From: Acidimicrobiia bacterium
GTDB taxonomy: Bacteria; Actinomycetota; Acidimicrobiia; Spongiisociales; ZC4RG35
Length of the DNA stretch: 64,000 bases
Assembly (NCBI GenBank): GCA_965203555.1
Contig: CBDBCY010000004.1
Location: forward strand, 2,336,001 to 2,400,000
Reading direction: 5' to 3'
In this document: piece by piece, positions 3,566-53,147 of the stretch
How the letters are laid out: the number at the start of each line of letters is the position of its first letter
How positions within the stretch are numbered: the first letter of the stretch is position 1
Notes under the pieces: generated by a model
What the model was told of the DNA's origin: nothing
What the model saw: only the letters and a program-made list of their open reading frames with translations
The model's database searches: none
Made by a program: the position numbers and the translations under genes

Positions 3566-4098
3566 TTGTCTGCTCCTACTCCCGAAGAGTTGCTGGATGT
3601 AGCCAGAGATCTCAGAAATCTGGTCCCGCCCGAAGCGAACCGACCGTACACAGCCCATCTCCGGCGGGCCATTTCAACCGCTTACTACGCCGTATTTTGC
3701 GCCTTGCGTGTAGAGATCGGCAAATCATATCCTGGTGATCTTGATCGAGTGGCGAGTCGACTTGTCAGTCACAGTTCGGCACGCGATGTCTTGGCAAACC
3801 TCCAGAGGAAGGGCGGAGACGGTTCGTTGCTTTTCATCTGGTTGCCTGATCGGCCTGTATGCGATCCTGATCTGGTTCTGTTCGCACAGACCTTTGAGCT
3901 TTTACTCAAAGAGAGGGAAAGTGCTGACTACGACTATCTGTGGCCGGCCTCCAAAAGGACGCGGAAGATGCGAGCAACTTGGCTGAGGAAGCGATTCAAC
4001 AGCTTGAGCGGGCGACAGCAAATGCTCCTGTGCAGGTCCGGGCTATCTGCCTGGCGGTCATAGCTGATTCCCGGAGCCGCAAGAGGATGAAGTTTTAG
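3566..4098 (+). pseudogene. HEPN-domain protein, frameshifted near 3953-3956
   Basis: RRAISTAYYAVF and RESADYD HEPN motifs; helical HEPN-like tail KDAEDASNLAEEAIQQLE continues in the -1 frame to TAG 4098. Confidence 0.75.
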
Positions 4099-5935: not shown

Positions 5936-6037
5936 GTATCTCCCGCGGGATCGAGAGGTGGATCGGGTCCACCCGGCGCAGATGGCCGTCAGCACTCTCG
6001 ACAGACACCGCAGTGTGAAAAAAGCAAGCTCGGATGC

Positions 6038-6067
6038 TTCCATTCCGTCACAGGGACAACTCATATT
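6038..6067 (+). promoter_or_regulatory. Sigma70-type promoter of ncRNA copy 1
   Basis: TTCCAT-18 nt-CATATT with upstream A6 tract (6018-6023); same layout at 11197-11226. Confidence 0.5.
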
Positions 6068-6072
6068 GATAG

Positions 6073-6240
6073 AAGCCAAACACCGAGACTTTTCGTTCCG
6101 GCGTCGTTCGAACAGGTCGAGGGATCAACTCGCTTAAGAAGAAGCTCTGTTCCACGCTGGGCTAAGTCTGCTCAACCCATGGAAAGGCGGTGGCGGGGGT
6201 GGGAGCCCGTAAGGGCGGATTTTCGCGACCCGGATTTTCG
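6073..6240 (+). ncRNA. 6S/Ms1-like structured RNA, paralog 1
   Basis: Shares AAACACCGAGAC, CCGGCGTCGTTCG, TCGAGGGATCA, GGAAAGGYGGWGGCGGGGG and a CCC-GTAA-GGG-type hairpin with 11233-11420; apical pairing TTCCA/TGGAA and TGGG/CCCA. Confidence 0.5.
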
Positions 6241-6700
6241 CGATATTGCGTTGGCGGATCCACCGGTTGTGCGGGAAGCAAGCACTTCCTCGGTGTTCAC
6301 CCGCCCATCGCTGCCCGGTGGGTAGGATTTCGGCAATGCCACCCTTCGCCAAGGGCACCGAGTCGGCCCGGCCGGTCGATCCCGCAGGTCGTATTACCAG
6401 TCTCGATCTGATCCGGGGAGTGGCGGTGTTGGGCATTCTTGTTATGAACGTCGTTTCGTTCGGGCTGGGACCCGGTCCCTATTTCAACCTCTCCGCCGGG
6501 GGATCCCACACCGGGTTCGACTGGTTGATAGGGGGGTTCGGCGAGATTTTCGTGGACCCTGTTGGCGATCACTGAAAGTTCCCAGTCTCGATCACTGAAA
6601 GTTCCCACCTCCTGGGGGTAAATGCCCGTTGTTGGGTAGGGCTCTCTCCAAGCTAAGGGATTGTCACATTTCCTAGCTGTGGAGAGGAGCCCTGCCCTTT

Positions 6701-7999
6701 ATGTTGGTACTGGAGGAGTGCGTGGAAGTTCATGCTTTGAGGAGGCGGGGGTGGTCGATCTCGGCTATCGCCCGTCATGTTGGTAAGAGCCGCCGTACCG
6801 TGCGAGCGTATCTGTCGGGCGATCGGGTGCCCGGTCAGCGTGCCCGGGCGGGGGCGGATCTGTTTGATGAGTTCGAGGCGTATGTGCGGCAGCGGTTGTC
6901 TGATGATCCGCATGTGTGGGGGTCGGCGTTGTTCGACGAGGTGGTGGCTTTGGGCTATGAGCAGAGCTACCCGACGTTCGTGCGGAAGGTCCGTCTTCGG
7001 GGCCTGCGGCCGTTGTGTGGCGCCTGTGCGGGTACCAGGGGCCGGGCCACGGCGATCATCGATCATCCACCGGGTGAGGAGTGCCAGTGGGACTGGGTGG
7101 AGTTACGTGACACGCCGTGGGGAGCCACCGCTCATGTGCTGGTGGGTGTGCTGTCGCACTCGGGCGCTTTTCGGGCGTGGATCACGTCCCGCCAGGACCA
7201 ACCCCATTTGGTGGAGGGTCTTGACCAGGTGTTGAGACGACTGGAGGGTACCCCGCGGCGGTGGAGGGTGGATCGGATGGCGACCGTGGTCGCCGCCACC
7301 GGTCGTATCCAGCCGTCGTTCGTTGGGGTAGCCAAACATTATGGGGTGGTTGTTGACCCGTGCCCACCGCGCCGTCCTCAACGGAAAGGCGTGGTGGAAA
7401 AGGCCATCCACTATGTCTCTCAGCGGTGGTGGCGCACCGCAGCGGTGACCAGCATCGCCGAAGCACAGCACAGTCTGGACAGATTCTGCCAGACCGTGGG
7501 CGATCTTCGCCCACGGGGTGAGAGCACGGTGGGTGAGCTGGCCAAGACCGAGCCTCTCCTCGAGCTGCCCCTGGTGGCTTACCCGGCAGAAGGGACTTTG
7601 GAGCGCAGGGTGACATCCAACGGGCTGGTATCGGTACGCGGTAACCGATACTCGGTGCCACCAGGGGTGATAGGAACCCAGGTCACCGTCCGATGGAGGC
7701 TCGGTGACCCCACTATCAGCATGTTCTCGGCCAGTGGCCGGCTGGTCGCTACCCACCAGCAGGCACCCCGCGGTATGGGACGGGTGGTTCGGCTACCCGA
7801 ACACACCGCCGCTTTGGAGAACGTGGTCCTAGCCGAGTTCACCACCAAACCACCCTGCAAACCCAAACCCAACCGTCCGCCATCAGACGCGGCTTTGGCT
7901 ATCGCCGCCGGTATCGGAGACCTGTACACCGAAACGGTGATCGATCTGGAGGTGTACCAGCGGCACATCGACCAACAAAACCGAAAAGCGGGGCTGTGA
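6701..7999 (+). CDS. istA: IS21 transposase IstA
   Basis: N-terminal HTH (GWSISAIARHVGKSRRTVRAYL), PGEECQWDW, VDRM, KGVVEK DDE motifs. Confidence 0.95.
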   Translation: MLVLEECVEVHALRRRGWSISAIARHVGKSRRTVRAYLSGDRVPGQRARAGADLFDEFEAYVRQRLSDDPHVWGSALFDEVVALGYEQSYPTFVRKVRLRGLRPLCGACAGTRGRATAIIDHPPGEECQWDWVELRDTPWGATAHVLVGVLSHSGAFRAWITSRQDQPHLVEGLDQVLRRLEGTPRRWRVDRMATVVAATGRIQPSFVGVAKHYGVVVDPCPPRRPQRKGVVEKAIHYVSQRWWRTAAVTSIAEAQHSLDRFCQTVGDLRPRGESTVGELAKTEPLLELPLVAYPAEGTLERRVTSNGLVSVRGNRYSVPPGVIGTQVTVRWRLGDPTISMFSASGRLVATHQQAPRGMGRVVRLPEHTAALENVVLAEFTTKPPCKPKPNRPPSDAALAIAAGIGDLYTETVIDLEVYQRHIDQQNRKAGL

Positions 8000-8781
8000 T
8001 GAACCAATCGGTGTACCAACAGCTGCGAGGCCATCTGGCCTACCTCAACCTACCCGCCGCCGCCGAGGCGCTCCCCACCCACCTCGAACAGGCACGAACC
8101 AACCGTGAAAGCCACACCGAGTTCCTTGAAGGTCTACTTCGAGTAGAAGTCGAGACCACCGAACAGCGGCGATGGGAAACCCGTCTCAAACTGGCGAACT
8201 TCCCCACCAGATGGCAACTGGAAGACTTCGACTTCACCGCCCAACCCAGCGTCGACGAGAAACTGGTAAGAGAGCTGGTTACCGGGGCCTACCTGGCCGA
8301 TGCCTCCAACGTTTTGTTCATCGGACCGCCCGGCGTGGGCAAAACCATGCTGGCGGTCATCCTGGGCCGCGCCGCGGTAGACACCGGTCACAAGGTGTAC
8401 TACACCACCGCTGCGGACCTGGCGGCGCGGTGCCGCAAAGCCGCCCTACAAGGACGATGGGCCCAAACGTTGCGGTTCTTCAACACCCCCAAAGTGTTGA
8501 TCATCGACGAACTGGGCTATCTGCCCATGCCGGCAGAAGACGCCGCCACCCTGTTCCAGGTCATCTCCAGACGGTACGGAAAAGGGTCGATCATTCTCAC
8601 CACCAACCTCGGTGTCGCGTCGTGGGGAGAGATCTTCTCCGACCACACCATCGCCGCCGCCATGCTCGACCGGCTGCTCCACAAAAGCGTGGTGTTCACC
8701 ATCACCGGCGACAGCTACCGCCTGAGAAGCTACCAAGCCCAAGCCCGAAAACACCGACCGAAAGGAGACCTGCTAGCCTAA
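7996..8781 (+). CDS. istB: IS21 helper ATPase IstB
   Basis: GPPGVGKT, LIIDELGY, IILTTN, AMLDRLLH, GDSYR; overlaps the istA stop. Confidence 0.96.
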   Translation: MMNQSVYQQLRGHLAYLNLPAAAEALPTHLEQARTNRESHTEFLEGLLRVEVETTEQRRWETRLKLANFPTRWQLEDFDFTAQPSVDEKLVRELVTGAYLADASNVLFIGPPGVGKTMLAVILGRAAVDTGHKVYYTTAADLAARCRKAALQGRWAQTLRFFNTPKVLIIDELGYLPMPAEDAATLFQVISRRYGKGSIILTTNLGVASWGEIFSDHTIAAAMLDRLLHKSVVFTITGDSYRLRSYQAQARKHRPKGDLLA

Positions 8782-9790
8782 AACCACCCAACCCAGGGTG
8801 GGAACTTTCGCTGATCGACTCTGGGTACTTTCGATGATCGTCATCAACCAGAAGTTCATGGGGCTCTTCTCGGTGCTCTTCGGGGCCGGTATCGTCCTGT
8901 TCTGCGACCGGGCATCCGGGAGAACCAAACGCCCGGAGGCTCTCAGCCTCTGGCGCAATCTTCTCCTATTGGGGATAGGCGCTGTTCACTTTCTGATGTG
9001 GGACGGTGACATTCTGATCGGCTACGCACTCGTCTCCCCGGTGATCATTCTCTTACGCAACCGGTCTACCCGGACCCTGCTTGTCCTTGGCGGTTCCTTG
9101 GTGCTGTTGTCGCCCCTTTCCGCGGTGTTGCTCCAGTCCTCCCTCCCGGGTGACGGCAGTGGGCTGGGAGCATTGTGGAACGCCTCGGGGGAGATGACCG
9201 ACGCGGCCCAGTTCTTCATCCTTGCGGATTTTCTGTCCCGCGCGGTGGGGATGATGTTGATCGGCGTGGCGCTCTACCGCAACGGAGTGCTGACGGGCGC
9301 ACGCCCATCGGCCTTCTATCGGCGGTCGGCCGCCGTCGGTTTGGGAGTGGGACTGCCGATGGCGGCTTTGGGGCTGGCCTGGGTGGTGATCGAAGACTTC
9401 TCACCTCAAGTGGCCCTGATCGGGACCATTCCCAATACGCTGGGCACGGTTCCGGCGGTGATCGGCTATCTCAGTCTCATAGTTCTCTGGAACCGCCGCC
9501 CGGAGACTTCCCTTCACAGGCGTTTGCGTGCGGCGGGGCGGATGGCGCTGACCAACTATCTGGCCCAGACCATCTTGGGAGTCCTGGTCCTGGGGCAGCT
9601 ACTGGTCGACGTTTCCCTGACCCGGACCATGCTGGCTGCATTCGTCGTGGTCGTGTGGCTGCTGCAGGTCTGGTGGTCCTCTGCCTGGCTCGATCGCTTC
9701 CGCTTCGGTCCGGCCGAATGGATGTGGAGGGTGGCTACCTACCGACGGTTCCAGCCCCTGCGTAGGCAAGAATCCACCAGAGCCTGACGA

Positions 9791-10548: not shown

Positions 10549-11115
10549 TTGTGCGATGTGAGACGCACGGATACCAAGTCCTTTTTTCGGACCAGGGCGC
10601 GGGGGCAGTCTGCACCTACAGGAGGCGAGTCCCAGCGAGTGTGTGAACATGTGACAGAGTGGCTTGGCGCCCGAACGCCCGCTCCCACGCTGGTGTGGAT
10701 CGCCATGCCCGGCGAACTGGATCTCAGCCCGGTGGTGGAGGCCCTTCCCCAGATAGAGTGGCTAACCACCCGTACGCCGTCATCGGGGCCCTTGACCGTG
10801 CATTCCTATCACTCCCGAAACGAACTTCATCGCTTCGGGTTTCGCCAGCCCGTGGCTACATCTCCGCTGGTATCTGCAGAGGACATCGGAGTCGTGCTGG
10901 CGCCTGGCCTGGTATTCGACCGCCGGGGGGGAAGGCTCGGCTGGGGAAAGGGCTACTACGACCGCCTACTGGCCCTGCTGGCCCCCGGCGTCCCGCGAGT
11001 CGGCGTTACCCTCGAACGCCTCCTGGTCGATCTGGTTCCCCAAGAGCCCCACGACATCCCCATGACCCATCTCGTCACCGACCTGGGAGAACGACGACTC
11101 GACTCGCCCGGTTAA
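10549..11115 (+). CDS. 5-formyltetrahydrofolate cyclo-ligase (YgfA family)
   Basis: APGLVFDRRGGRLGWGKGYYDRLL and EPHDIPM motifs. Confidence 0.93.
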   Translation: MCDVRRTDTKSFFRTRARGQSAPTGGESQRVCEHVTEWLGARTPAPTLVWIAMPGELDLSPVVEALPQIEWLTTRTPSSGPLTVHSYHSRNELHRFGFRQPVATSPLVSAEDIGVVLAPGLVFDRRGGRLGWGKGYYDRLLALLAPGVPRVGVTLERLLVDLVPQEPHDIPMTHLVTDLGERRLDSPG

Positions 11116-11196
11116 AGGCGCCCCTGCTTGGAACTGTGACATTGGTGTTTTTTCCGGCCTTGCCGCGGAATGGCAAAAAAGCGGGCCGTTGCGGGG

Positions 11197-11226
11197 TTGA
11201 TTTGTGTCCCACCGATGGTTCATACT
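11197..11226 (+). promoter_or_regulatory. Sigma70-type promoter of ncRNA copy 2
   Basis: TTGATT-18 nt-CATACT with upstream A6 tract (11175-11180). Confidence 0.6.
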
Positions 11227-11232
11227 GACAGC

Positions 11233-11420
11233 AAGCAAACACCGAGACGGTCCGTCCCGGCGTCGTTCGGACCGCATCGAGGGATCACATGGTCTTATCA
11301 ATGGGAACTGTTCCGGCTCCGCCGGGCAGCCTGACCCGAGCCTGGACAGAACCCATTTGACCCGAGGAAAGGTGGAGGCGGGGGAGGGCCCGGTAACGGG
11401 AGGGTTCTCGGCTGATTTTT
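11233..11420 (+). ncRNA. 6S/Ms1-like structured RNA, paralog 2
   Basis: ~188-nt rod: CCGAGA/TCTCGG closing stem, central bubble, GGTC/GACC, ATGGG/CCCAT, CTGT/ACAG, GGCTC/GAGCC apical stem; ends in T5; follows the ygfA-family gene. Confidence 0.62.
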
Positions 11421-11515
11421 CCGTCGTTGATTATCGCCAAGTGGTAACTATATAAACGAGGACGGGGTGGTCGTCCGACTCTCGCCGTGCTGCTGAACGC
11501 TGAGGCGGTGCTGTC

Positions 11516-12577
11516 CTACACGACTCCGACGGCTTCGACGATCCAGCGGCCTATCTCGGAGGTGGAGGCGCCCATCCGGGGTCCCCCCATCGCTCCCAAT
11601 TCCGGCAGGACTCCGGCGGCCGCCTCCTCTATTTTCACAGCCGCCTCTTTCTCTCCCAGGTAATCCAGGCACATGGCGGCGGTGAGTACTGCTGCCACCG
11701 GGTTGGCCCATCCGGTGCCCACAATGTCGGGGGCGCTTCCGTGAACAGGCTCGAACAGGGAGGGAAAATCGCCGGTGGGATTGAGATTGCCGCTCGCCGC
11801 CAAGCCGATCCCGCCGGCTATGGCCGCTCCCAGATCAGTGAGGATGTCGCCGAAGATGTTGTCGGTCACCATCACGTCGAAACGCTGGGGACTTTGGATG
11901 AGGTGTATGCAGGCTGCATCGGCATGCACGTAATCCACCTCCACCTCCGGATACTCGACTGCCACCTCGTCCGTGGTCCGTTGCCACAGGTCCCCGGCGT
12001 AATTGAGTACGTTGGTCTTGTGACACATGGTCAGTCGACGGTCCCGACTCATGGCCCGCTCGAAGGCATAGCGGACTATGCGTTCGGTTCCTCTCCGGGT
12101 ATTGACCGAGTTTTGATTGGCAATCTCGTGGGCAGTTCCCTTGTGGAGGAACCCGCCGCTTCCCGAGTACAGACCCTCGGTGTTTTCTCTCATCACTTCC
12201 AAGTCGCACTGTTCCGGAGCAAGGCCGGCTATCGCGCTGGGAACCCCCGGGTAAAGCTTGACAGGCCGAAAATTCACGTAGAGATCGAAGTCGAACCGCA
12301 ACCTCAGCAACAGTCCCCTCTCCAGGATGCCGGGCGCTACCTGGGGGGTTCCCACCGCGCCCAGAAGTATCGCGTCGTGCTCGGCAAGTTCGTCCTGAAC
12401 CGAATCGGGCAACACCTCCCCGGTGCCGAGGTAACGCCGGCTGCCCAAGTCGTAGTCGGTGAGATCGATCTTGAATCCGAATCTGGCCGATGCCGCCTCC
12501 AGGGCGCTCACCGCACAGGCTGTGACCTCCGGGCCGATCCCGTCACCGGCGATCACTGCCAACCGGTAGCTATTCAT
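11516..12577 (-). CDS. leuB: 3-isopropylmalate dehydrogenase
   Basis: [38 protein letters not shown]; start re-called at ATG 12577. Confidence 0.93.
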
Positions 12578-12593
12578 AGTGAGACCCTCCCGG

Positions 12594-12938
12594 TTACAGC
12601 AGTTCCTCGGCGATGTCGCCGAAGATCCCTGGACGCTGTGGCGCCTCCGCCAAACCATAGACCGGTCTTTCCTGCAGGTCCCTGTGCCGGGGTATTGGCG
12701 GTTTGCTCTTTGCGGCAGGGGATTGAGGCGGAGGCTGGCGGGTGAAGTTCAGTTCGAGCCCCAATTCGTTCGCCAGCGCCAGGAGGCTTGATACTCGCAT
12801 GTCCACCGCACAGTTCTCGATGCGGGAGATCTGCGCTTGGGTAAGACCCGATCTCTGGCTCAGTTCCCGCTGGCTCAACCCCAGACCGCAGCGCGCCTCC
12901 TGCAGTATCTTTGCTATACGCGAGTTCCCTTGGCTCAT
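12594..12938 (-). CDS. XRE/HipB-like helix-turn-helix protein
   Basis: [31 protein letters not shown]_3 pattern; AT-rich upstream region. Confidence 0.85.
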
Positions 12939-13046
12939 ACCAATACAAGATAGCATATACACTCGGTCCGTTCACGCTCATAACAACCCTTTGTTAACGA
13001 TACAGTTTTAGATATCGAGAGTCGACAATGGGGACGGGGGGTACCT

Positions 13047-14561
13047 TCACTTTGCACCGATGGCTCTGTTCAAGGCATCAACGAAGGCCTCTGCCGAACC
13101 CTCCACCACGTCGGTGGAGACGCCCTTTCCCGAAAAGGTGTTGTCGCCCACTCGGACCACCACATTCACCTCCGCCATGGCGTCGGCGCCGGAGGTGATC
13201 GGCACCACCCGGTAGTCGACCAGGCGGGCTTTGACGCCAAAGCACTGCCTGATTGCCGAAAAGGCCGCGTGGACCATTCCCCCGCCGTGTCCCGTGTATT
13301 CGGATAAGACCCCTGCTCGGGACAGCGTCACCACCGCGGTGGGAGTGGTGTCATGTCCGCCGGAGACATTGATTCCCACCATCTCGACTTCGGCAGCCGG
13401 CAATCCGGACGGTCCGGATGTTGCAATAGCCCGCAGCTCCTCTTCGCCGATCTCCAGTTTCCGGTCGGCCATGGCCTTGAACTTGGCGAATGCCTGGTTG
13501 AATTCGTCCTCTTCCAAAGAGATTTCCAGGTTCTTCAGAGCGTCGGCGAATCCGGCCCGGCCCGAGTGCTTGCCAAGCACGATCTGGGCGCCCCGCTGAC
13601 CGATGGCCTCGGCGCTCATGATTTCATAGGTTTCGCGGTCCCGGAGCACTCCGTGCTGGTGGATGCCGGACTCGTGGGCGAAGGCGTTGCGTCCCACCAC
13701 CGCCTTATTGAATTGCACGGGATAGCCGGTGAGTTGTGAGACCAACCGGGAAGTGTCGAAGATCTGGGTGGTGTCCGCTCCGACCTCGACACCGAACACG
13801 TCTTGGCGTGTCTTGACAGCCATGATGATCTCCTCGATAGAGGTGTTGCCTGCTCGTTCCCCTATGCCGTTTATGGCCCCTTCTATCTGTCGGGCGCCCG
13901 CCGAGATGGCGGACAGGGAATTGGCCACCGCCAGGCCCAGGTCATTGTGGCAGTGAACGGAGATGGTGACGTCCCTTCGGTCACCGCGCACCTCCGCGTA
14001 GATCCTTTTCATCAGGTCGATGAAGTCGGCCGGTGTGGCGTATCCGACGGTATCGGGGATGTTGATGGTGGTGGCGCCCGCTTCCACCGCCGCCCGGCAC
14101 ACATCAACCAGGAACCGATATTCGGAACGGGTGGCGTCCTGGGGCGAGAACTCCACGTCGTCGGTGTAACGGCGCGCCCGTCGGACCCCTTCGATCGAGG
14201 CTTGTAGCACCTCCGAGGGGGTCATGCGCAGCATCCGTTCCATGTGGATTGGAGAGGTGGACATGAAGACGTGGATCCGGGCGCGGTCGGCATGTCGCAG
14301 TGCATCCCAGGCTTGGTCGATGTCACCGGGATGAGCGCGGGCCAGGCTGGCGATTACCGGCCCCTTCACTTCGGTGGCGATTCTGGACACCGCCTGGAAA
14401 TCGCCTGACGATGACGCGGCGAACCCGGCCTCCAGGACATCCACTTGCAGGCGGGCCAGTTGATGGGCGATGGTGACTTTTTCGTCGGGAGTCAGTGCGA
14501 TTCCGGGGGCTTGTTCCCCGTCACGCAGGGTCGTGTCGAAGATGATCAATCGGTCGGACAT
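13047..14561 (-). CDS. leuA: 2-isopropylmalate synthase
   Basis: FDTTLRDGEQAPG, HCHNDLG, GIGERAGN, HESGIHQHG, C-terminal regulatory domain. Confidence 0.97.
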   Translation of the reverse strand: MSDRLIIFDTTLRDGEQAPGIALTPDEKVTIAHQLARLQVDVLEAGFAASSSGDFQAVSRIATEVKGPVIASLARAHPGDIDQAWDALRHADRARIHVFMSTSPIHMERMLRMTPSEVLQASIEGVRRARRYTDDVEFSPQDATRSEYRFLVDVCRAAVEAGATTINIPDTVGYATPADFIDLMKRIYAEVRGDRRDVTISVHCHNDLGLAVANSLSAISAGARQIEGAINGIGERAGNTSIEEIIMAVKTRQDVFGVEVGADTTQIFDTSRLVSQLTGYPVQFNKAVVGRNAFAHESGIHQHGVLRDRETYEIMSAEAIGQRGAQIVLGKHSGRAGFADALKNLEISLEEDEFNQAFAKFKAMADRKLEIGEEELRAIATSGPSGLPAAEVEMVGINVSGGHDTTPTAVVTLSRAGVLSEYTGHGGGMVHAAFSAIRQCFGVKARLVDYRVVPITSGADAMAEVNVVVRVGDNTFSGKGVSTDVVEGSAEAFVDALNRAIGAK

Positions 14562-14612
14562 GTCTTCGGGGCTCCTGGTTGTCTAGTGGCGTGCTGAGCT
14601 AAGTGGTGTGAA

Positions 14613-14642
14613 GGCCGGGCCGGCGGGAACCGCCGCCCGGCC
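14613..14642. other. Strong GC hairpin between ilvC and leuA
   Basis: GGCCGGGC-GGCGG-TTC-CCGCC-G-GCCCGGCC on the minus strand; no U-tract, so possibly a stability or pause element. Confidence 0.4.
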
Positions 14643-14693
14643 GGGTCAGCGCCAGACAACCGCGGCGTCGAACCGTCGAAGAGCAAACGTGAA

Positions 14694-15698
14694 TCATCCC
14701 GGTGTCTTGGGATCCAGGAAGGGCATCATCTGCCTCAGTTCCCGTCCGATCTGCTCGATAGGATGAGACTGGTTGGCGGCCCGCTGCTCCAACAGGAAGG
14801 GTGCTCCTTCCCGGGCTTGGGCCATCCACTCCCGGGCGAAAGCGCCGGATTGGATCTCGGCCAGAACCCGCTTCATTTCGGCGCGGCTCTCGTCGGTGAT
14901 GATCCGAGCGCCCCGGGTGTAGTCGCCGTATTCGGCGGTGTCGGAGATCGAATAGCGCATCCAGGAGAGTCCTCCCTCATACAGGAGGTCCACGATGAGC
15001 TTCAGTTCGTGAAGAGTCTCGAAGTAAGCCGACTCGGGTTCGTAGCCGGCTTCCACCAGGGTTTCATAAGAGGCCTTGATCAACTGCGACACGCCGCCGC
15101 ACAGGATTACCTGCTCCCCGAACAGATCGGTCTCGGTTTCCTCCCGGAAAGTCGTTTGCAGCACGCCCGCCCTGGCCCCTCCGATTCCCCACGAGTAGGA
15201 CATTCCCAGATCGAAAGCCCCGCCGGTGGCGTCCTGGTGGATAGCCAGCAGACAGGGAACCCCCGATCCTTCGGTATAGGTGCGACGCACCAGGTGACCC
15301 GGCCCCTTGGGCGCCACCATCAGCACGTCCAGTTCCTCCGATGGCACGATCTCTCCGAAGTGGATGTTGAAACCGTGGGCGAACAGCAAAGCATTTCCAG
15401 GCGCCATCCGTTCGGCGATCCGCTGGTTGTAGAAGTCGGCCATCAGTTGGTCGGGGACCAGCATGGTCACCACGTCGGCCCACTCGGCGGCATCGGGAGG
15501 ATCCATGACCTCCAACCCGTCCGACCGCGCCTGCGCTCTCCGGGCCGAACCGGGTCGAAGCCCCACCACCACGTCGACTCCCGACTCCGAAAGATTGAGG
15601 GCATGGGCATGGCCCTGGCTGCCGTAACCGATCACGGCCACCTTGCGCCCCTTGATTACCCCCGGATCTGCATCCTTGTCATAGAAGATCTCAGCCAT
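14694..15698 (-). CDS. ilvC: Ketol-acid reductoisomerase
   Basis: [44 protein letters not shown]. Confidence 0.97.
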
Positions 15699-15713
15699 TT
15701 AGCTTCTCACCGC

Positions 15714-16238
15714 CTATCCGACCGCCCTCATGCGGGAGGGCTTGCTCTTGGCGGCCCGCCCGATGGCAATCCGCCCCGACTTGACCAACTCCACCACCCC
15801 GAAAGGCCGCAGGAGTTCTATCAGATCATTCAGTTTGGCTGGTCGGCCGGTCACCTCGAAGGTGAGGGTGTTGAAGCCCACATCAACCACGTTCGCTTTG
15901 AAGATGTTGGCCACCTCGATGGCTTCGGTCCGGGCGACGCCGATGGCCGAGACGCGGATCAGCATGGTCTCACGCTCCACCGCGGCGGAGGGCTCGAGTT
16001 CGAAGATCTTGACCACGTTGATCAGCTTGTGGAGTTGCTTCTTGACCTGTTCGATCTTTTCGGATTCCACCACCACGGTGATCCGGGAAAGGCCACGGTC
16101 AATGGTCGGACCCACTGCCAGGGAGTGGATGTTGAATCCCCTGCGGGCCAGAGTGGAAGAAACCCTGGCCAGCACGCCCGGGCGGTTTTCAACGACCAGG
16201 CTCAGAGTGTGTCGGGGTACGGGTGACTCTCTGGGCAT
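15714..16238 (-). CDS. ilvN: Acetolactate synthase small subunit
   Basis: HTLSLVVENRPGVLARVS ACT domain, KQLHKLINV; start re-called at ATG 16238. Confidence 0.95.
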   Translation of the reverse strand: MPRESPVPRHTLSLVVENRPGVLARVSSTLARRGFNIHSLAVGPTIDRGLSRITVVVESEKIEQVKKQLHKLINVVKIFELEPSAAVERETMLIRVSAIGVARTEAIEVANIFKANVVDVGFNTLTFEVTGRPAKLNDLIELLRPFGVVELVKSGRIAIGRAAKSKPSRMRAVG

Positions 16239-16240
16239 GG

Positions 16241-17944
16241 TCAATCTCCGGAATCCGGACCCAGGATCACCTGGTCGTTGGAGCCGCCGGCCGGAACCAT
16301 CGGGAAAACCATCTCCTCGCGGTCGACCACCATTTCCACCACCACCGGGCGGTCGTCGATCGACAACGACTTCTCCAAAGTGGGTTCCACCTCTTCGGGC
16401 GCCTCCGCCCGCAGTCCTATGCAGCCCATTCCCTCTGCCAACTTCACGTAGTCCACTACATCGGAGTTCAGCAGGCTGGAAGAGAGGCGACTTCCGTAAA
16501 AGAGTTTCTGCCACTGCTTCACCATTCCGTGGGCGTCGTTGTTAAAGACGACCACCTTGACGGGAATCCGGTAGGCGGCGGCGACTATCAGTTCCTGGAA
16601 GGTCATCTGGAAGCAACCGTCGCCGTCCACGGCGTAAACCAGCTCGTTCGGCATTCCGGCTTTGGCGCCGATTGCCGCCGGAACCGCAAATCCCATGGTC
16701 CCCAGGCCGCCCGAGTTGATCCAGCGTCGCGGCTGGTCGAACTTCCAGAACTGGGAGGCCCACATCTGGTGCTGTCCGACGCCCGCCACCAGGATGGCGT
16801 CTCCACCGGTGAGTCTTGCCAGTTCCTCGATTATGAACTGGGGCTTGATCGGGCCATCCGGCTGCTGGTCGTAAAACAGGGGGTATTTGTCCTGCCAACC
16901 GCGGAGGGTATCGATCCACTCCTGGTTGGCGAGGGGCGGTCGGTCACCCCAGGCCTTGATGAACTGGTTCAGAACCCGCTGGGCGTCCGCCACGATGGGA
17001 ACGTCAGGCTGCCGAACCTTTCCTATCTCCGCCGGGTCTATGTCAGCGTGGATGACTTTGGCGTCCACTGCGAAGTGCTGGGGGTCACCGGTGACCCGGT
17101 CGTCGAATCGCACTCCCACCGCCACCAGGATGTCGCATTTTTGCATGGAGGTTATGGCGGTGTAGTTGCCGTGCATTCCCGGCATCCCCAGGCAGAGCGG
17201 GTGGTCGTCAGATATGGCGCCCCTTCCCATCAGCGTGGTCACCACCGGTATGTTGGCCATCTCCGCGAAGCGGGTGAGGGCTTCCGACGCTTCGGCCTTG
17301 ATGATTCCTCCCCCCACGTAGAGCACCGGCCGTTCACTGCGGGCCAGCAGCTCAACAGCCTCTTTGACTCTTCGGGGGTGACCGTCCATGGTGGGTTTGT
17401 AACCGGGGAGATCCAGGTCTTCCGGTGGGCGCCACTCGGTTTCCTGGTTGAGCACGTCCTTGGGCAGATCGATCAATACCGGTCCGGGTCGACCGGATGA
17501 GGCCAGATGGAAGGCTTGGTGGACCACGGTCGGGATGTCGTCGGGATCGGTAACGAAGTAGTTGTGCTTGGTGGCGGGCATGGTGATCCCGACGGTGTAC
17601 GCCTCTTGGAAGGCGTCATTGCCCACCGCGTGAGTGGGCACCTGTCCGGTGATGGCCACCATGGGAACCGAGTCCATCAGCGCATCCGCCAGGGGCGTCA
17701 CCAGGTTGGTGGCGCCCGGACCCGAAGTGGCCATGCACACCCCCACCCGACCGGTGGCCCATGCGTACCCGGCCGCCATGTGACCGGCGCCCTGCTCGTG
17801 GCGGGCCATGACGTGGCGGATAGGGCTGAAATAGAGAGGGTCGTAGGCGGGAAGGATGGCGCCGCCCGGAATACCGAATATCAGGTCGACACCCTCGTGC
17901 TCCAGCGAGGAGATTATTGATTGCGCTCCGGTTGTTTTCGTCAT
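16241..17944 (-). CDS. ilvB: Acetolactate synthase large subunit
   Basis: [44 protein letters not shown] motif; start at ATG 17944. Confidence 0.97.
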
Positions 17945-17969
17945 GGTGGTCGGCTTTCGTGAGGCTACC

Positions 17970-17998
17970 AAAAAGAAATCCCTCCTTGTGGAGGGATT
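17970..17998 (-). terminator. Attenuator terminator upstream of ilvB
   Basis: AATCCCTCC-ACAA-GGAGGGATT followed by TCTTTTT on the minus strand. Confidence 0.85.
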
Positions 17999-18023
17999 CA
18001 GCGCACACGGGTTTGCGTGTGCG

Positions 18024-18059
18024 CTACTCGAGTACCAGCAACAGGCCCATATGTCTCAT
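18024..18059 (-). CDS. ilvB operon leader peptide MRHMGLLLVLE
   Basis: 11-aa ORF with a run of 4 Leu and 1 Val, followed by hairpin AGCGCACACG/CGTGTGCGCT and the terminator. Confidence 0.8.
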   Translation of the reverse strand: MRHMGLLLVLE

Positions 18060-18068
18060 TGATTGCAC

Positions 18069-18097
18069 ATTATGGTATGTCTTGGGCAAACTCGCAA
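18069..18097 (-). promoter_or_regulatory. ilv operon promoter
   Basis: TTGCGA-17 nt-CATAAT, 9 nt before the leader ATG. Confidence 0.7.
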
Positions 18098-18161
18098 CTC
18101 AGAGAGCAAAAGTCCCGGGGTTTCATTTATCTTTAAAGGGATATGACGCGGGCGTTGTTCC

Positions 18162-19436
18162 ATGAAGTACGGACCTGAAGACTTTCAGGCAGCCTCGGAG
18201 TGGGCGCTGTTGGCCGTGAAAGCCATGTCTGCAGAGCAGGTACCTCACAACCTGCGAAAGATACGCGCCTCTTCGAACCGTCGGTTGACGCCAGTGCAAA
18301 CGCGAACTCTCTACCGTGAACTGAACAAGAACGAGCAACTTCGCCAAAGCACCCTGGAAGTCTTGGAGACGTCGGCTGGAGAAGCTGGGCCGCTGTCTAC
18401 AGATCACGACCCGCGTCTGACGGCGTCACGCCTTTTTCTGGCCCGCCCGGACGGATGGGAAAGAGATGTCGGGCGCCTTGTGACCGAGGCCAAGCTGGAA
18501 GATACCGGTGAGGAGGCGAGGATCCTGCGGCGCCGACTCGATGAGGCGCGGTTGGAGATAGACAAACTCAAGAAACAGGCGAAGAAGTCGCAGCGGGCGT
18601 CCTCCGCTCGACTCCGGCGCGATACTCGACAACTCCGCCGCGATCTGGAGCGTTCCAAGAGAAGGAGTCGAGATTTGGAGAGCGAGCTTTCCAAACAGCG
18701 GCAGGCGAATCGTGACCTCGACAAGGAGTTGGAGGCAGCCTTCGACGAACTGGATTTGGCCGATGCGCGGGTGAAGGAATTGCGCAGGTTGGTGGGAAAG
18801 GAGCGGTCCTCCCATTCATCCTCGCCGAGCACCGGCCATGATGGGCGGGTAGACGGGCTGAGCCGCAATCCCCTGGAAACTGCTCGGATGCTGGATCAGA
18901 TGGTGAGCTTTTGGGAAATGGGACAGGGCTTCGACTCCCATCCGGTCGCCTCGTCTCCCCGATTGGAGGTTCCGGCGGGGATCGATCCCAAGTCGGGCGA
19001 TGCGGTGCGATGGGTTTACGACCACGCTCCCCGGCTCACCCTGGTGGTGGACGGGTGGAATGCCGCCTATCACTGGCAATATCACCAGAACCCTTCCAAA
19101 GATCCCGACCAGAGAACTATCGAGTTTCTTACCAACAGGCTGGACAGGCTGGCCAGATACTCGGTGGGAAAACACCGGGTGAGCTTCTATCTGGATTCGG
19201 AACACGCCAAGGGATGGAACGCTGAAGGTGACAACCGATTCAAGAACGGCTCCCTTACCGGTCGCTACGTGGAGGATGCCGACAACGCCATCGTTGCCGA
19301 GGCTGCTCAGCGAGCCGACCAGCCGGTGGTGGTGATCACCAATGACCAGGAACTGACCGATCGCTGCCGGGCGCACGGGGCGGTGGTGCTGGATTCGAAG
19401 GCTTTGGCGGAGTGGATGGCGTACTCATCGGTCTGA
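18162..19436 (+). CDS. Coiled-coil plus NYN (YacP/Rae1-like PIN-fold) domain protein
   Basis: Long charged coiled coil; LVVDGWN, YLDS, DADNAI, VITNDQEL acidic NYN motifs. Confidence 0.8.
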   Translation: MKYGPEDFQAASEWALLAVKAMSAEQVPHNLRKIRASSNRRLTPVQTRTLYRELNKNEQLRQSTLEVLETSAGEAGPLSTDHDPRLTASRLFLARPDGWERDVGRLVTEAKLEDTGEEARILRRRLDEARLEIDKLKKQAKKSQRASSARLRRDTRQLRRDLERSKRRSRDLESELSKQRQANRDLDKELEAAFDELDLADARVKELRRLVGKERSSHSSSPSTGHDGRVDGLSRNPLETARMLDQMVSFWEMGQGFDSHPVASSPRLEVPAGIDPKSGDAVRWVYDHAPRLTLVVDGWNAAYHWQYHQNPSKDPDQRTIEFLTNRLDRLARYSVGKHRVSFYLDSEHAKGWNAEGDNRFKNGSLTGRYVEDADNAIVAEAAQRADQPVVVITNDQELTDRCRAHGAVVLDSKALAEWMAYSSV

Positions 19437-20527
19437 GCCACCGGCTTCTGGCCCGGGGCCTCGAATACGGTCTGGACCGGGTGGGAGTCTGTTCGGCGGA
19501 CCCCTTTGCCGATACCCGGTTGGTGATCCGCTCTCGAAAGACCGAGGGTCTGTCGGCCCGGCTGGGATTCACCTTCACCGATCCGGACGTGTCCACCGAT
19601 ATAAGACGGTCTTTTCCCTGGGCCGAGCGTCTGGTGGTGGGGATACGTGCCTACCTACCGGCCGCCGGCGATCCCGGTGAAGGCTCGGCGGGGCGGGGTC
19701 GGGTGGCCCGCTTTGCGGTGGCCGACTCCTATCTGCCTCTTCGAGCCGGTCTGGGCGCCGTTGCTTCGGAGTTGCGCAACTCCGGTTTCCGGGCGGAAGT
19801 GCTGGCGGACGACTCAAGGCTGGTGGACCGAGCAGCGGCGGTGCGAGCCGGGGTGGGGTGGTGGGGAAAGAGCACCATGGTGCTGGCCCCGGGCGCGGGA
19901 CCCTGGTTTCTCATCGGATCCGTGGTGACCGACGCCCGCCTGCCGACCTCGCAGCCGATGGAACGAACCTGCGGAACCTGTACCGCCTGTCTGCCGGCCT
20001 GTCCCACCGGGGCTCTGATTGCGCCGGGGGTGCTGGACGCCCGGTTGTGCCTGGCGGCGCTGGCGCAGAGCCCGGGAGTCATTCCCCGAGACCTGCGGCC
20101 CTTCATGGAGGATCGAATCTACGGATGCGACGAATGCCTGGCCGCCTGCCCTCCGGGTGGTCGGTTGATGGACAGGGCTGTTGCATCCCGCGGATCGGTC
20201 GATCTGGTGGAACTTCTGCGCAGAGCCGACCGGGAACTCCTGGATGAATTCACTCACTTCTATATGCCCTCTCGCCGTCCTCGCGTCCTGCGGCGCAATG
20301 CGCTGGTGGCGCTGGGAAACACCGGAACCGCCGATCACCTGGGAATAGTGGGCGGCTATTTGGGTCATCCCGATTGGCTGTTGCGGCTTCACGCGGTGTG
20401 GGCGGTACACAATCTGGGTGTAAGGTTTTCTCTTCGTTGGGCGGCTCTGTTCCTGCGTCACGCCGCCTCCCGGGAGAAGTCACCGGAGGTGAGGGAGGAA
20501 TTGGCCCTGGCCGGGGTGGATGTGTGA
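19412..20527 (+). CDS. queG: tRNA epoxyqueuosine reductase
   Basis: AGVGWWGKS, CGTCTACLPACPTGA, DARLC, IYGCDECLAACP, RRNALVALGN. Confidence 0.93.
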   Translation: MDGVLIGLSHRLLARGLEYGLDRVGVCSADPFADTRLVIRSRKTEGLSARLGFTFTDPDVSTDIRRSFPWAERLVVGIRAYLPAAGDPGEGSAGRGRVARFAVADSYLPLRAGLGAVASELRNSGFRAEVLADDSRLVDRAAAVRAGVGWWGKSTMVLAPGAGPWFLIGSVVTDARLPTSQPMERTCGTCTACLPACPTGALIAPGVLDARLCLAALAQSPGVIPRDLRPFMEDRIYGCDECLAACPPGGRLMDRAVASRGSVDLVELLRRADRELLDEFTHFYMPSRRPRVLRRNALVALGNTGTADHLGIVGGYLGHPDWLLRLHAVWAVHNLGVRFSLRWAALFLRHAASREKSPEVREELALAGVDV

Positions 20528-20625
20528 AAACAACAGGGGAACCCTACGCCCAGTTGGGCTACGGCGTTTTTGGCTAAAGCAACGAGGAGGGGAAGTTGGT
20601 AACCAGGGTTCGCTAGTTTTCCTTC

Positions 20626-21923: not shown

Positions 21924-22003
21924 AGAGGACATTCGGTTCTGGATTTGGATGGATGAGCCCCCGTGGAGGGACCTCCGCCCTGGAGGACGCTTATTATCGG
22001 GAT

Positions 22004-47921: not shown

Positions 47922-53147
<5,226 letters not shown>

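Follow-up and report, generated by a model that had tools for sequence, protein, structure and literature searches.

A candidate small RNA family beside the 5-formyltetrahydrofolate cyclo-ligase gene in Acidimicrobiia and its comparison with 6S and Ms1 RNAs

Introduction

What occupies the 400-bp gap (11116-11515) between the convergent genes for 5-formyltetrahydrofolate cyclo-ligase (5-FCL) and an isopropylmalate/isocitrate dehydrogenase-like protein of the Iso_dh family in a 64,000-nucleotide stretch of Acidimicrobiia DNA, referred to here as the window? A preliminary description placed a 6S- or Ms1-like RNA there. According to the available text of two studies, the 5-FCL gene (ygfA) is the classic neighbour of 6S RNA (PMC9130861, PMC4064990). 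In the same texts, 6S RNA is given a minimum size of ~160 nt (PMC9130861) and a wide unpaired bubble at its centre, set between the closing and terminal stems and edged by conserved G-C pairs (PMC4064990), and the genes syntenic with Ms1 are a HAD-IB hydrolase/phosphoserine phosphatase gene and an oxidoreductase gene (PMC9130861). Ms1 has been predicted in 14 orders. Table 4 of PMC9130861, in the form available, contains no 6S or Ms1 RNA from the Acidimicrobiia, and four Acidimicrobiia names do not occur in one of its supplementary files.

Results

The locus and its copies

The gap, the TTGATT-18-CATACT promoter and the final run of five T residues were all found in the sequence as first described. 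The conserved island in the gap begins with an A-tract and this promoter and extends to ~11400-11420 (Table 1). The homologues of the 5-FCL protein are annotated as 5-FCL, and several come from Acidimicrobiia MAGs. The true start of the Iso_dh protein is likely Met28 (12577); its alignment with the homologue from a related locus, L003, starts at residue 28. The Iso_dh gene has its own terminator-like hairpin in the scan, at 11476-11460 on the minus strand.

A sister copy (copy B) is located 5 kb from the RNA in the gap (copy A), with a conserved region, promoter included, of ~6004-6245 of the window. Three further copies were found in two related Acidimicrobiia MAG loci, two in L001, one of which is truncated, and one in L002. 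The nhmmer and blastn matches to copy A are L002:3598-3839, L001:3595-3717, L001:766-947 and 6010-6242 of the window. The comparison covers four full copies (copy A, L002, copy B and L001a) and one partial copy (L001b, which retains the promoter, leader and hairpin P1 only) from three related genomes. With a covariance model built on the 5' domain, the five copies reach 73.6-83.5 bits (copy B 80.3), and the best non-member in 231,685 bases reaches 12.2 bits (E 2.1). No more distant members were found with the nhmmer profile, a motif scan or the covariance model, the last run over 29 sources, and plasmid and phage collections gave no blastn match in distant mode.

The copies are of two types. 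Type A adjoins the 5-FCL gene, on its downstream side, in all three RNA-bearing genomes. Type B is flanked by genes for an ABC-2 permease and a DUF418 protein, and 5-FCL is not adjacent. The two direct copies bracket a DUF418-acyltransferase-5-FCL block in both the window and L001. Among the informative sites, 22 follow the orthology of the types and 7 group copy A with L001a. In L003, whose Iso_dh protein is 83% identical, the 5-FCL and Iso_dh genes overlap at their stop codons, leaving no gap at the site. The linkage to 5-FCL is narrow and on the downstream side of the gene.

Table 1. Coordinates of the features in the window and pairing of the helices first read by eye
Feature	Position	Strand	Details
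5-FCL gene	10549-11115	+	PF01812, E 4.3e-26; 5' neighbour of copy A
Iso_dh family ORF	11516-12658	-	PF00180, E 1.4e-87; convergent with copy A
A-tract, UP-element-like	11175-11180	+	~45-55 nt 5' of presumed copy A start; putative function
Copy A promoter	11197-11226	+	TTGATT 11197-11202, 18-nt spacer, CATACT 11221-11226
RNA copy A, ~188 nt	11233-11420	+	5' end placed from the -10 element; 3' end set at T5
5' leader	11233-11247	+	invariant block AAACACCGAG (CACCGAG 11240-11246)
Hairpin P1	11248-11274	+	CGGTCCG 11248-11254 / CGGACCG 11268-11274; conserved 13-nt loop 11255-11267
Linker TCGAGGGATCA	11277-11287	+	nearly invariant, apparently unpaired
Hairpin P2, long and irregular	11288-11363	+	conserved top helix CTGTTC 11308-11313 / GGACAG 11344-11349
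P2 apical extension	GGCTC 11315-11319 / GAGCC 11338-11342	+	A-type copies only
G-tract GGAAAGGTGGAGGCGGGGGAGGG	11366-11388	+
Small hairpin P3	11389-11400	+	CCCG-GTAA-CGGG, read off sequence
3' tail, terminator-like	11401-11420	+	TCTCGG 11406-11411, T5 11416-11420
Copy B promoter	6038-6067	+	TTCCAT 6038-6043, 18-nt spacer, CATATT 6062-6067
RNA copy B, ~156-172 nt	6074-6245	+	nhmmer E 1.3e-16 against copy A
Copy B P1	6089-6095 / 6109-6115
Copy B G-tract	6181-6203
Copy B P3	6205-6216
Copy B tail repeats	6217-6228 and 6232-6243
CCGAGA/TCTCGG			paired: copy A 6/6, L002 5/6, copy B 5/6, L001a 4/6
GGTC/GACC			paired: copy A 4/4, L002 2/4, copy B 0/4, L001a 1/4
ATGGG/CCCAT			paired: copy A 5/5, L002 3/5, copy B 2/5, L001a 2/5
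CTGT/ACAG			paired: copy A 4/4, L002 3/4, copy B 2/4, L001a 4/4
GGCTC/GAGCC			paired: copy A 5/5, L002 4/5; segment absent in copy B and L001a

Conservation and coding potential

In the block alignment, copy A and L002 are 76% identical over 148 columns, and copy B and L001a are 80% identical. The flanks, measured out to the neighbouring genes, are 39-43% identical. The identity between paralogues is 67-72% (71% for copy B and copy A), and 84 of the 173 columns without gaps never vary. No codon periodicity was found in 11120-11480, no reading frame is open in all copies, with indels breaking the frame, and none of the three ORFs over the gap (39 ORFs scanned) belongs to a Pfam family. A non-coding RNA gene family is well supported, because the island is conserved, the copies share no reading frame, P1 shows compensation and P2 has an indel at its tip. 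It is very probable that the gap contains a genuine gene for a conserved non-coding RNA, with a predicted transcript. By its sequence alone copy A does not rise above chance; it does so through conservation, five homologous copies having one and the same promoter layout. The earlier proposal of an independently promoted non-coding RNA gene of ~160-190 nt, on the plus strand beside 5-FCL, is upheld by the island in its unconserved flanks, the missing common frame and the compensation in P1.

Promoter, transcript ends and strand

The -10 hexamer is CATACT in four of the five copies and CATATT in one. The -35 hexamer is TTGATT in three copies, TTGAAT in one and TTCCAT in one, with identical spacing, and in the alignment the A-rich run upstream of it keeps the same distance across the copies. 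The promoter scan reports no site in 10900-11700 and stays below threshold in all four copy regions; it misses the copy A promoter because the hexamer pair matches only 8 of the 12 consensus positions.

At the 3' end of copy A, the terminator scan gives a terminator-like plus-strand hairpin (11397-11410) followed by GCTGATTTTT. This hairpin takes up TCTCG, the segment that had been assigned to a closing stem. The scan found no site in the copy B, L002 or L001a regions, whose tails are GGATTTTCGCGA-like, but every copy has a short G+C hairpin and U4-5 a few bases on. With a terminator-like site in only one copy of four, the 3' ends given here are provisional, and transcription of type B might continue into DUF418. 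The predicted length, from the presumed start to the U-rich tail, is 156-190 nt. The plus strand was assigned because the G-U pairs are specific to it; the U-G pairs in P2 would be C-A on the minus strand.

Structural parts

The block alignment was built by ourselves, and the sequences from which the helices were deduced are also those on which they are counted here: P1 is paired at 7/7, 7/7, 6/7 and 7/7 positions in copy A, L002, copy B and L001a, and the top helix of P2 at 6/6, 5/6, 4/6 and 6/6. Over the five copies, 94% of the P1 cells pair, versus 21-48% when the partner is slid. Two P1 pairs change on both sides, one from G-C to U-A and the other from C-G to U-A or U-G. The P1 covariation score is equalled or exceeded by 26 of 500 shuffles, and related sequences may beat shuffles even without a structure. 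The power to detect covariation is low because there are four full copies and one partial copy from three related genomes.

Much of the conserved sequence appears to be unpaired. The leader block AAACACCGAG is invariant in all four full copies and has one change in L001b, and the linker TCGAGGGATCA is identical in three of the four, with one change in L001a. The leader has two pairing options, with GGUG of the G-tract (4, 4, 3 and 4 of 4 pairs) or, via CCGAGA, with the 3' tail. The first option is open to all four copies and appears in the minimum free energy (MFE) structure of L002 and copy B, but it is not claimed here, as it amounts to only 4 bp that do not truly covary.

The top of P2 is retained through A-to-G changes, which turn U-A into U-G pairs. 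The P2 arms are nearly equal in the four copies (22/22/21/21 and 23/23/23/23 nt), and the apex is 30 or 29 nt in the A-type and 6 nt in the B-type copies, placing the 24-nt difference exactly at the tip. The register of lower P2 is poorly conserved among the four copies. The folding z-scores of the P2 domain, obtained with our own script against shuffles, are -2.48, -2.52, +0.42 (copy B) and -1.49. In copy A, the 83-nt central hairpin alone (z -2.48) reproduces the ATGGG/CCCAT, CTGT/ACAG and GGCTC/GAGCC helices.

In the G-tract, all 16 G residues are invariant and six of the seven non-G positions vary among the four full copies. The pattern of its 18-nt core matches the window only at 11371-11388 and 6186-6203; at least two matches were obtained in 14 of 100 shuffles. 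Simple G-quadruplex potential alone is not special, because the pattern GGNGGNGGNGG is common in the window (55 matches versus 15 expected, mostly in genes). The G-tract is followed in each copy by a 3-5 bp G+C hairpin, read off the sequence and different each time: the counterparts of the copy A P3 are GCCC-GTAA-GGGC in copy B, GGGCC-CTTT-GGCCC in L002 and CCC-TCA-GGG in L001a. Pairing between the promoter spacer and the G-tract, considered as an explanation of the discordant sites, shows no convincing complementarity.

Tests of the 6S and Ms1 assignment

Searched over its whole 64 kb, the window has no match to any Rfam family at the gathering score (46.4 bits for 6S, RF00013), and copy B was covered by this gathering-score search only. 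Relaxed cutoffs, E ≤ 10 for 11050-11600 and E ≤ 5 for L001 and L002, brought up neither 6S nor Ms1. As a positive control, the Rfam search finds a 6S RNA at L044:1285-1464 (62.8 bits), which folds end to end as one rod (z -2.14). The chance matches to Rfam were to snoRNA and lncRNA families only (E 0.47-4.5). Across 27 related loci (L001-L027), no Rfam 6S was found closer than 3 kb to 5-FCL. For Ms1, the absence of an Rfam match is a weak test given the poor recovery of this RNA by Rfam, which, in the available text of PMC9130861, is insensitive to distant Ms1 and recovers it only near Mycobacterium.

The 188 nt of copy A fold at -76.1 kcal/mol, compared with -73.55 +/- 4.68 for the shuffles (z -0.54), and 56 of 200 shuffles fold as well or better. 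The other three copies have z-scores of +0.60, -0.83 and +0.62, so that no copy is more stable than its shuffles; for 6S, low folding energy is a supporting trait and not a formal requirement. The MFE and centroid structures of all four copies are branched and not rods. End-to-end pairing amounts to only 4-6 bp, and a fold constrained to contain the closing stem lies 7.3-15.8 kcal/mol above the MFE. Relative to the MFE, the helices that the comparison supports are also unfavourable, by 3.8-13.4 kcal/mol. RNAalifold gives no stable consensus beyond P1 with the MAFFT alignment, and the consensus from the block alignment lacks P1 as well. Each strand of the would-be bubble is ~43 nt long and contains a hairpin, P1 or P3, and no bordering G-C pairs can be defined.

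The long rod with a central bubble that had been drawn by eye is not reproduced by the folding of copy A, whose MFE structure is not a rod and whose stability does not exceed that of shuffles. The five by-eye helices do occur in copy A, but only CCGAGA/TCTCGG and CTGT/ACAG hold in most copies (Table 1). With no Rfam match, no rod, no excess stability and a closing stem of 4-6 bp, identity with a 6S- or Ms1-like RNA is not supported, and the RNA pair does not look like a polymerase-binding RNA of either kind.

Discussion

A lineage-restricted RNA family

We lean towards a new, lineage-restricted family of structured, trans-acting small RNAs with an invariant G-tract and two paralogues per genome. 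The comparison shows the conserved island, the promoter layout, the missing common frame, P1, the top of P2 and the G-tract pattern. Type A sits after the 5-FCL gene and type B before the DUF418 gene, and each copy would be transcribed on the plus strand from its own sigma-70-type promoter into an RNA of ~156-190 nt. From 5' to 3', the predicted layout is a single-stranded leader, the 7-bp P1 with its 13-nt loop, a purine-rich linker, P2, the G-tract, P3 and a U-rich tail. P2 would be a long irregular hairpin with a tip of variable length, and the G-tract a 23-nt stretch in which only the G residues are fixed. The RNA would act through its large invariant unpaired surfaces, namely the leader, the P1 loop, the linker and the G-tract.

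Action in trans is probable, since no gene follows type A on the same strand. Type A is not a leader, because a convergent gene faces it in the window and in L002. How the RNA would act is a more tentative matter. A protein-bound or decoy role or a tertiary fold may apply, and appears likelier than an antisense seed because the invariant unpaired surfaces exceed the length of a seed; protein binding is proposed here from the conservation pattern only.

Base-pairing small RNAs

An unlikely but reasonable alternative is a classical pair of base-pairing small RNAs, in which the leader AAACACCGAG or the P1 loop is the seed and the remainder is scaffold and terminator. Paralogous small RNA pairs are common. 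The leader, which opens the RNA, stays single-stranded in most predicted folds and does not vary among the four full copies, and L001b has kept only the promoter, the leader and P1. In addition, the DUF418 gene that follows copy B has an exact 9-nt complement of the leader in its 5' untranslated region (6289-6297). However, this complement is absent at the equivalent place in L001, and by our arithmetic chance alone would give ~0.5 matches of this kind over both strands of 64 kb. The usual target of small RNAs in Gram-positive bacteria is the G-rich ribosome-binding site, which purine-rich sequence cannot mask, and the conserved unpaired sequence here is purine-rich and far longer than a seed.

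Polymerase-binding RNAs

A divergent RNA of the 6S, Ms1 or CoRP type, which would bind RNA polymerase (holoenzyme or core) by mimicry of an open promoter, is improbable. In such a geometry, P2 would be the terminal stem, the flanking purine-rich strands the bubble and CCGAGA/TCTCGG the closing stem. The RNA shares with 6S (SsrS) its length, within the 6S range, a promoter of its own, the 5-FCL neighbour and the presence of two paralogues per genome. Some Firmicutes also carry two 6S paralogues. The promoter is conserved together with its A-tract, 5'-3' pairing is possible in the four copies (6/6, 5/6, 5/6 and 4/6), and the window contains no Rfam 6S. On the other hand, no covariance-model match was obtained although the control 6S was found, and the RNA has neither the single rod nor the excess stability of that control. 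It also lacks a long closing stem: the stem of 4-6 bp varies only from G-C to G-U and competes with the terminator-like hairpin of copy A. A large bubble bordered by G-C pairs is not apparent either, P2 having small internal loops only. The RNA lies downstream and not upstream of 5-FCL, is found in only three close genomes, and its site is empty in L003. What is conserved is mainly the sequence of its unpaired segments, whereas in 6S it is the shape.

Ms1 of the Actinomycetia (MTS2823 / scr3559) comes from the same phylum and also has a conserved sigma-70-type promoter, and its long hairpin with a conserved central bubble, accompanied by a short hairpin near each end, as given in the available text of PMC4191392, loosely resembles the P1-P2-P3 order. 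At ~230-300 nt (PMC9130861, PMC11077062, available text), it is longer than the 156-190 nt of the RNA described here. The flanks, 5-FCL/Iso_dh and ABC-2 permease/DUF418, differ from the Ms1 synteny genes, and P2 has small internal loops where Ms1 has its central bubble. Actinobacterial polymerase-binding RNAs can evade homology search, as reported for Ms1 (PMC9130861) and for CoRP of Corynebacterium (PMC11077062), according to the text available of each. CoRP is a precedent for a genus-restricted RNA of this kind missed by synteny and structure searches, but at ~500 nt and between tRNA genes it is unlike the present RNA (PMC11077062, available text).

A bolder version of the same doubtful reading would make the pair the Acidimicrobiia counterpart of 6S, Ms1 and CoRP, a lineage-specific, non-canonical polymerase-binding RNA with three hairpins. 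Its binding surface would be the invariant G-only tract, possibly an RNA G-quadruplex, together with the purine-rich linker, and the ancestral 6S location beside 5-FCL would have been retained by one paralogue. We rate this version as improbable too.

Conserved unpaired GGA purine stretches (GAGGGAUCA, AUGGAAAGG and GGAGG) in paralogous copies may also resemble the pattern of protein-sequestering RNAs with repeated purine motifs (CsrB/RsmZ type). Two of the GGA motifs are GGU in copy B and L002, and the motifs of CsrB-type RNAs sit in many hairpin loops, a layout different from that found here.

A leader of the DUF418 gene

A cis-acting, riboswitch-like or attenuator leader of the DUF418 gene has a similarly low probability. 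Type B would be the working copy, and type A either an orphan duplicate or the source of regulated antisense transcription into the convergent Iso_dh gene. In both carriers, the window and L001, type B lies 92-100 nt upstream of DUF418 on the same strand with no terminator-like site in between, and many invariant nucleotides between covarying stems are the pattern of a ligand-binding RNA. Against a leader, type A is followed by no same-strand gene in three genomes, both types have their own conserved promoter, and no Rfam riboswitch was matched. Also, there is no conserved expression platform, because the spacer between type B and DUF418 is only 41% identical between the orthologues.

Repeated DNA and small proteins

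It is very unlikely that the island is no RNA gene but duplicated DNA, such as a repeat, a mobile-element relic or a regulatory region, flanking the DUF418-acyltransferase-5-FCL block. The direct copies around the same block in two loci, the empty site in L003, as an insertion would predict, and the 7 discordant sites against 22, which hint at exchange between copies, would fit such an origin. However, there are only two copies in 64 kb and no extra ones in 231 kb of related loci, the plasmid and phage collections gave no match, and terminal inverted repeats or target duplications were not seen by eye. Unlike in neutral repeats, the stems change with compensation and the loops are invariant, and the paralogues are older than the split of the three genomes and have both been retained.

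A small protein encoded by the 23-codon ORF at 11289 or the 83-codon ORF at 11204-11455 is rejected as barely conceivable: both ORFs are present in copy A, with GAGGGA 5 nt before the ATG at 11289, but this ATG is missing in copy B, L001a and L002, no frame is free of stop codons across all copies, indel lengths are not divisible by three, and neither codon periodicity nor a Pfam match supports a product.

Meaning of the locus

The small RNAs of the Acidimicrobiia are essentially undescribed; in a full-text search for 6S RNA or sRNA together with the class, these terms were in no title or abstract of the records as available. If the polymerase-binding reading were true, it would fill a gap in a class without a reported 6S or Ms1 RNA and would represent a new mode of polymerase docking. 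The locus also carries a caution: in a G+C-rich genome, adjacency to 5-FCL and a rod drawn by eye are insufficient for a 6S call. For the class, it provides a concrete small RNA candidate: its conservation has sharp limits, it occurs as two paralogues, and it has an unusual tract conserved in its G residues only.

Copies of the RNA and their gene context

The protein encoded by the 5-formyltetrahydrofolate cyclo-ligase (5-FCL) gene has many relatives with 40–83% identity, several of them named as coming from Acidimicrobiia MAGs. An alignment of 50 relatives, used as the query for a scan of genome_contigs, gave 80 loci, and L001–L027 among these are mostly from Acidimicrobiia or Actinomycetota. 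By blastn and nhmmer, the gap holding the RNA downstream of 5-FCL (copy A) is homologous to L002:3598–3839, downstream of the 5-FCL gene of that locus (E 7e-23), and to two places in L001, a partial copy downstream of 5-FCL (3595–3717) and a full copy at 766–947 (L001a). The same searches revealed an unexpected second copy in the window, at 6010–6242 on the forward strand (E 1e-16; copy B). Neither a profile built from the four full copies nor a 5'-domain covariance model run over 231,685 bases (the window plus L001–L028) has brought up a sixth copy; the model gives members 73.6–83.5 bits and the next match 12.2 bits. The plasmid and phage records searched hold no match to the RNA.

The common gene order is ABC-2 permease, copy B, DUF418 gene, acyltransferase (reverse strand), 5-FCL, copy A and Iso_dh-family gene (reverse strand). 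Both types are present in the window and in L001, and L002 shows only copy A within its 6.5 kb. In L001, the promoter, the leader and the first hairpin (P1) are preserved in copy A (3595–3860), which scores 73.6 bits with the 5'-domain model. Directly 3' of P1 this copy passes into unrelated sequence, and a 791-aa hybrid histidine kinase/response regulator is encoded beside it. The copy has either been truncated to a relic or become a chimeric RNA whose 3' half is new. The Iso_dh proteins of L003 and the window share 83% identity. In L003 the stop codons of 5-FCL and Iso_dh overlap on opposite strands (L003:3537–3540), leaving zero intergenic DNA compared with 400 bp in the window. At the post-5-FCL site the RNA is therefore apparently confined to a narrow clade.

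An IS21-family insertion sequence (6560–8846) splits the DUF418 gene after copy B, whose two parts are 68% and 72% identical to their counterparts in the unbroken gene of L001. To the right of copy A lies a cluster of branched-chain amino acid genes (11516–23677), among them the Iso_dh-family gene; no Rfam T-box or leader RNA has been found in this cluster. The largest ORF of the window by crude ORF picking has 1741 codons (47922–53147, reverse strand).

Features of the window and of the related loci (window positions unless a locus is named; pairing is given in the order copy A, L002, copy B, L001a)
Feature	Position	Strand	Remarks
Copy B	~6074–6245	+	before DUF418 gene
DUF418 gene, N-terminal part	6337–6575		74 residues
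DUF418 gene, remainder	8798–9787
IS21 terminal inverted repeats	6560–6609 and 8797–8846		50 nt, 82% complementary
istA-like gene	6701–7999		rve, Mu-transposase C-terminal domain
istB-like gene	7996–8781
5-FCL gene	10549–11115	+	PF01812, left of gap
Intergenic gap	11116–11515		400 bp, holds copy A
Copy A –35, TTGATT	11197–11202	+	18-nt spacer to –10
Copy A –10, CATACT	11221–11226	+	read in sequence
Copy A	11233–11420	+
P1	11248–11254 / 11268–11274	+	paired 7/7, 7/7, 6/7, 7/7
P2 top, CUGUUC/GGACAG	11308–11313 / 11344–11349	+	paired 6/6, 5/6, 4/6, 6/6
G-tract	11366–11388; 6181–6203; L001:913–935; L002:3786–3808		23 nt
Terminator-like hairpin of Iso_dh gene	11476–11460	–	scan
Iso_dh-family gene	11516–12658	–	PF00180, right of gap, convergent
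LeuA-like 2-isopropylmalate/homocitrate synthase	13047–14561	–
TPP-enzyme acetolactate-synthase-like gene	16241–17971	–
Dihydroxy-acid dehydratase	21800–23677	+

Boundaries and anatomy of the RNA

The RNA forms an island of conservation. Its body is 76% identical between copy A and L002 and 80% between copy B and L001a, with 67–72% between paralogues, and the sequence from the RNA to the neighbouring genes (upstream of the A-tract, between copy A and the Iso_dh stop, and between copy B and the DUF418 start) is 39–43% identical. The island begins with an A-tract ~50 nt before the presumed start, and in each of the five copies it takes in both promoter hexamers (–35 and –10) and their spacing. 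The promoter sequence described previously is present in the gap. A consensus scan calls a promoter in none of the four regions of full copies and a terminator-like site in copy A alone, so we infer the transcription and the 3' ends of the RNA. The final 95 nt of the gap are accounted for by the Iso_dh terminator-like hairpin. Among informative sites, 22 fit A/B orthology, 4 join the two window copies, and 7 join copy A with L001a and also copy B with L002, against that orthology. Three of these 7 discordant sites fall in the promoter spacer (11203–11220, 6044–6061) and two are the W (A/T) positions of the G-tract; they may reflect patchy gene conversion or coupled constraint.

The anatomy has been derived from a block alignment anchored on invariant blocks, and both alignment and helices come from the same sequences on which they are counted. 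Segment lengths are equal within one or two nt across the four full copies, except at the tip of the second hairpin (P2), which has 30 and 29 nt in the A-type copies, where the insertion makes an additional GGCU/AGCC helix, and 6 nt in the B-type copies. Over five copies, 94% of P1 cells are paired, against 21–48% with the partner slid. Two P1 pairs are altered on both sides (G-C to U-A; C-G to U-A or U-G), and the P1 covariation score is matched by 26 of 500 shuffles, a test with little power for three genomes and four full copies. At the top of P2 an A-to-G change converts U-A into U-G; the U-G pairs of this helix would be C-A on the opposite strand, and this assigns the RNA to the forward strand.

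Between the helices lie invariant stretches: the leader AAACACCGAG, most of the 13-nt P1 loop, the linker UCGAGGGAUCA, GUUCC and CUGG around the P2 top, and the tract GGAAAGGYGGWGGCGGGGGWGGG. The four copies agree at all 16 G of this G-tract and differ at 6 of its 7 other positions (post-hoc P 7e-5); outside it 16 of 29 G are invariant. Such a pattern would be expected if the G runs alone matter, for example in a G-quadruplex, and no pyrimidine partner for the tract has been found within the RNA. Every copy ends in a small G+C hairpin of differing sequence and a U-rich tail. The copy B tail contains GGATTTTCGCGA twice in tandem (6217–6228 and 6232–6243), with a palindromic TCGCGA core; L002 has one and a half units and L001a one diverged unit.

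Identity of the RNA

Judged from sequence comparison, the RNA most likely represents a new family of structured small RNAs that is lineage-restricted and comprises two old paralogues, each under a promoter of its own. Seed pairing by the 5' leader is one possible mode of action. The invariant leader segment AACACCGAG has an exact 9-nt complement, CTCGGTGTT, at 6289–6297, between copy B (~45 nt away) and the DUF418 start codon (40 nt away), but this complement is missing at the equivalent place in L001 and may be chance, as ~0.5 such matches are expected. The invariant unpaired sequence, the purine richness and the G-only constraint also speak against a short antisense seed at ribosome-binding sites. 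Type B may instead be a leader of the DUF418 gene, and no terminator is called for it; the spacer between the two is, however, unconserved.

The preliminary description had read copy A by eye as a 6S- or Ms1-like rod of five helices. All five, and the T5 run, are present in copy A, but they are unevenly kept in the other copies. By this comparison the central hairpin is real in outline (domain z –2.48 in copy A, –2.52 in L002, +0.42 in copy B and –1.49 in L001a). The proposed closing stem is a 4–6 bp contact that varies by G-C to G-U only and, in copy A, competes with the terminator-like hairpin. The two strands of the proposed bubble, ~43 nt each, each contain a hairpin, and the minimum free energy (MFE) fold of copy A is branched. 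Enforcing the rod costs 7.3–15.8 kcal/mol over the MFE in the four copies; the helices backed by comparison also cost 3.8–13.4 kcal/mol, and energy models guide poorly for these G-rich sequences. The fold energy of the 188 nt is –76.1 kcal/mol, compared with –73.55 ± 4.68 for shuffles (z –0.54; 56 of 200 as good), with z –0.14 for the opposite strand and +0.60, –0.83 and +0.62 for the whole L002, copy B and L001a molecules.

Pairing of the five helices read by eye in the four full copies
Helix	Copy A	L002	Copy B	L001a
CCGAGA/TCTCGG	6/6	5/6	5/6	4/6
GGTC/GACC	4/4	2/4	0/4	1/4
ATGGG/CCCAT	5/5	3/5	2/5	2/5
CTGT/ACAG	4/4	3/4	2/4	4/4
GGCTC/GAGCC	5/5	4/5	not present	not present

Across the whole 64-kb window every Rfam family stays below its gathering score, and a permissive search of 11050–11600 (E ≤ 10) gives just two chance matches, an lncRNA fragment and a snoRNA. 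As a positive control, Rfam finds a 6S RNA at L044:1285–1464 (62.8 bits), 1.5 kb upstream of 5-FCL in an unrelated bacterium, which folds as one end-to-end rod (z –2.14). The defining feature of 6S RNA is a central bubble flanked by G-C pairs, with a closing stem on one side and a terminal loop on the other (PMC4064990). The present RNA shares with 6S its size, 5-FCL neighbour and paralogy, but not the model match, rod, long closing stem or stability. Its hairpin order of short, long, short resembles Ms1 as described in the literature (PMC4191392), while the flanking genes do not fit and the length and central bubble fit poorly. The Ms1 survey covers 14 orders, Acidimicrobiia not among them (PMC9130861), and none of four Acidimicrobiia names searched for occurs in one of its supplementary files. 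A polymerase-binding role is improbable, and is retained as a slim chance because distant Ms1 RNAs are known to escape Rfam (PMC9130861) and because a genus-restricted polymerase-binding RNA, CoRP, has been described (PMC11077062).

A small protein is rejected: no frame on either strand stays open across all copies, which differ in length by numbers not divisible by three, the 23-codon ORF at 11289 lacks its ATG in the other three full copies, codon periodicity is absent in the gap, and ORFs spanning it match no Pfam family.

In two genomes the gene next downstream of type A of the proposed RNA family is convergent with it, so that action in trans is the simplest reading for the family. The abundance of invariant unpaired sequence, together with purine richness and constraint on G alone, favours an RNA that would be bound by protein, serve as a decoy or adopt a tertiary fold.
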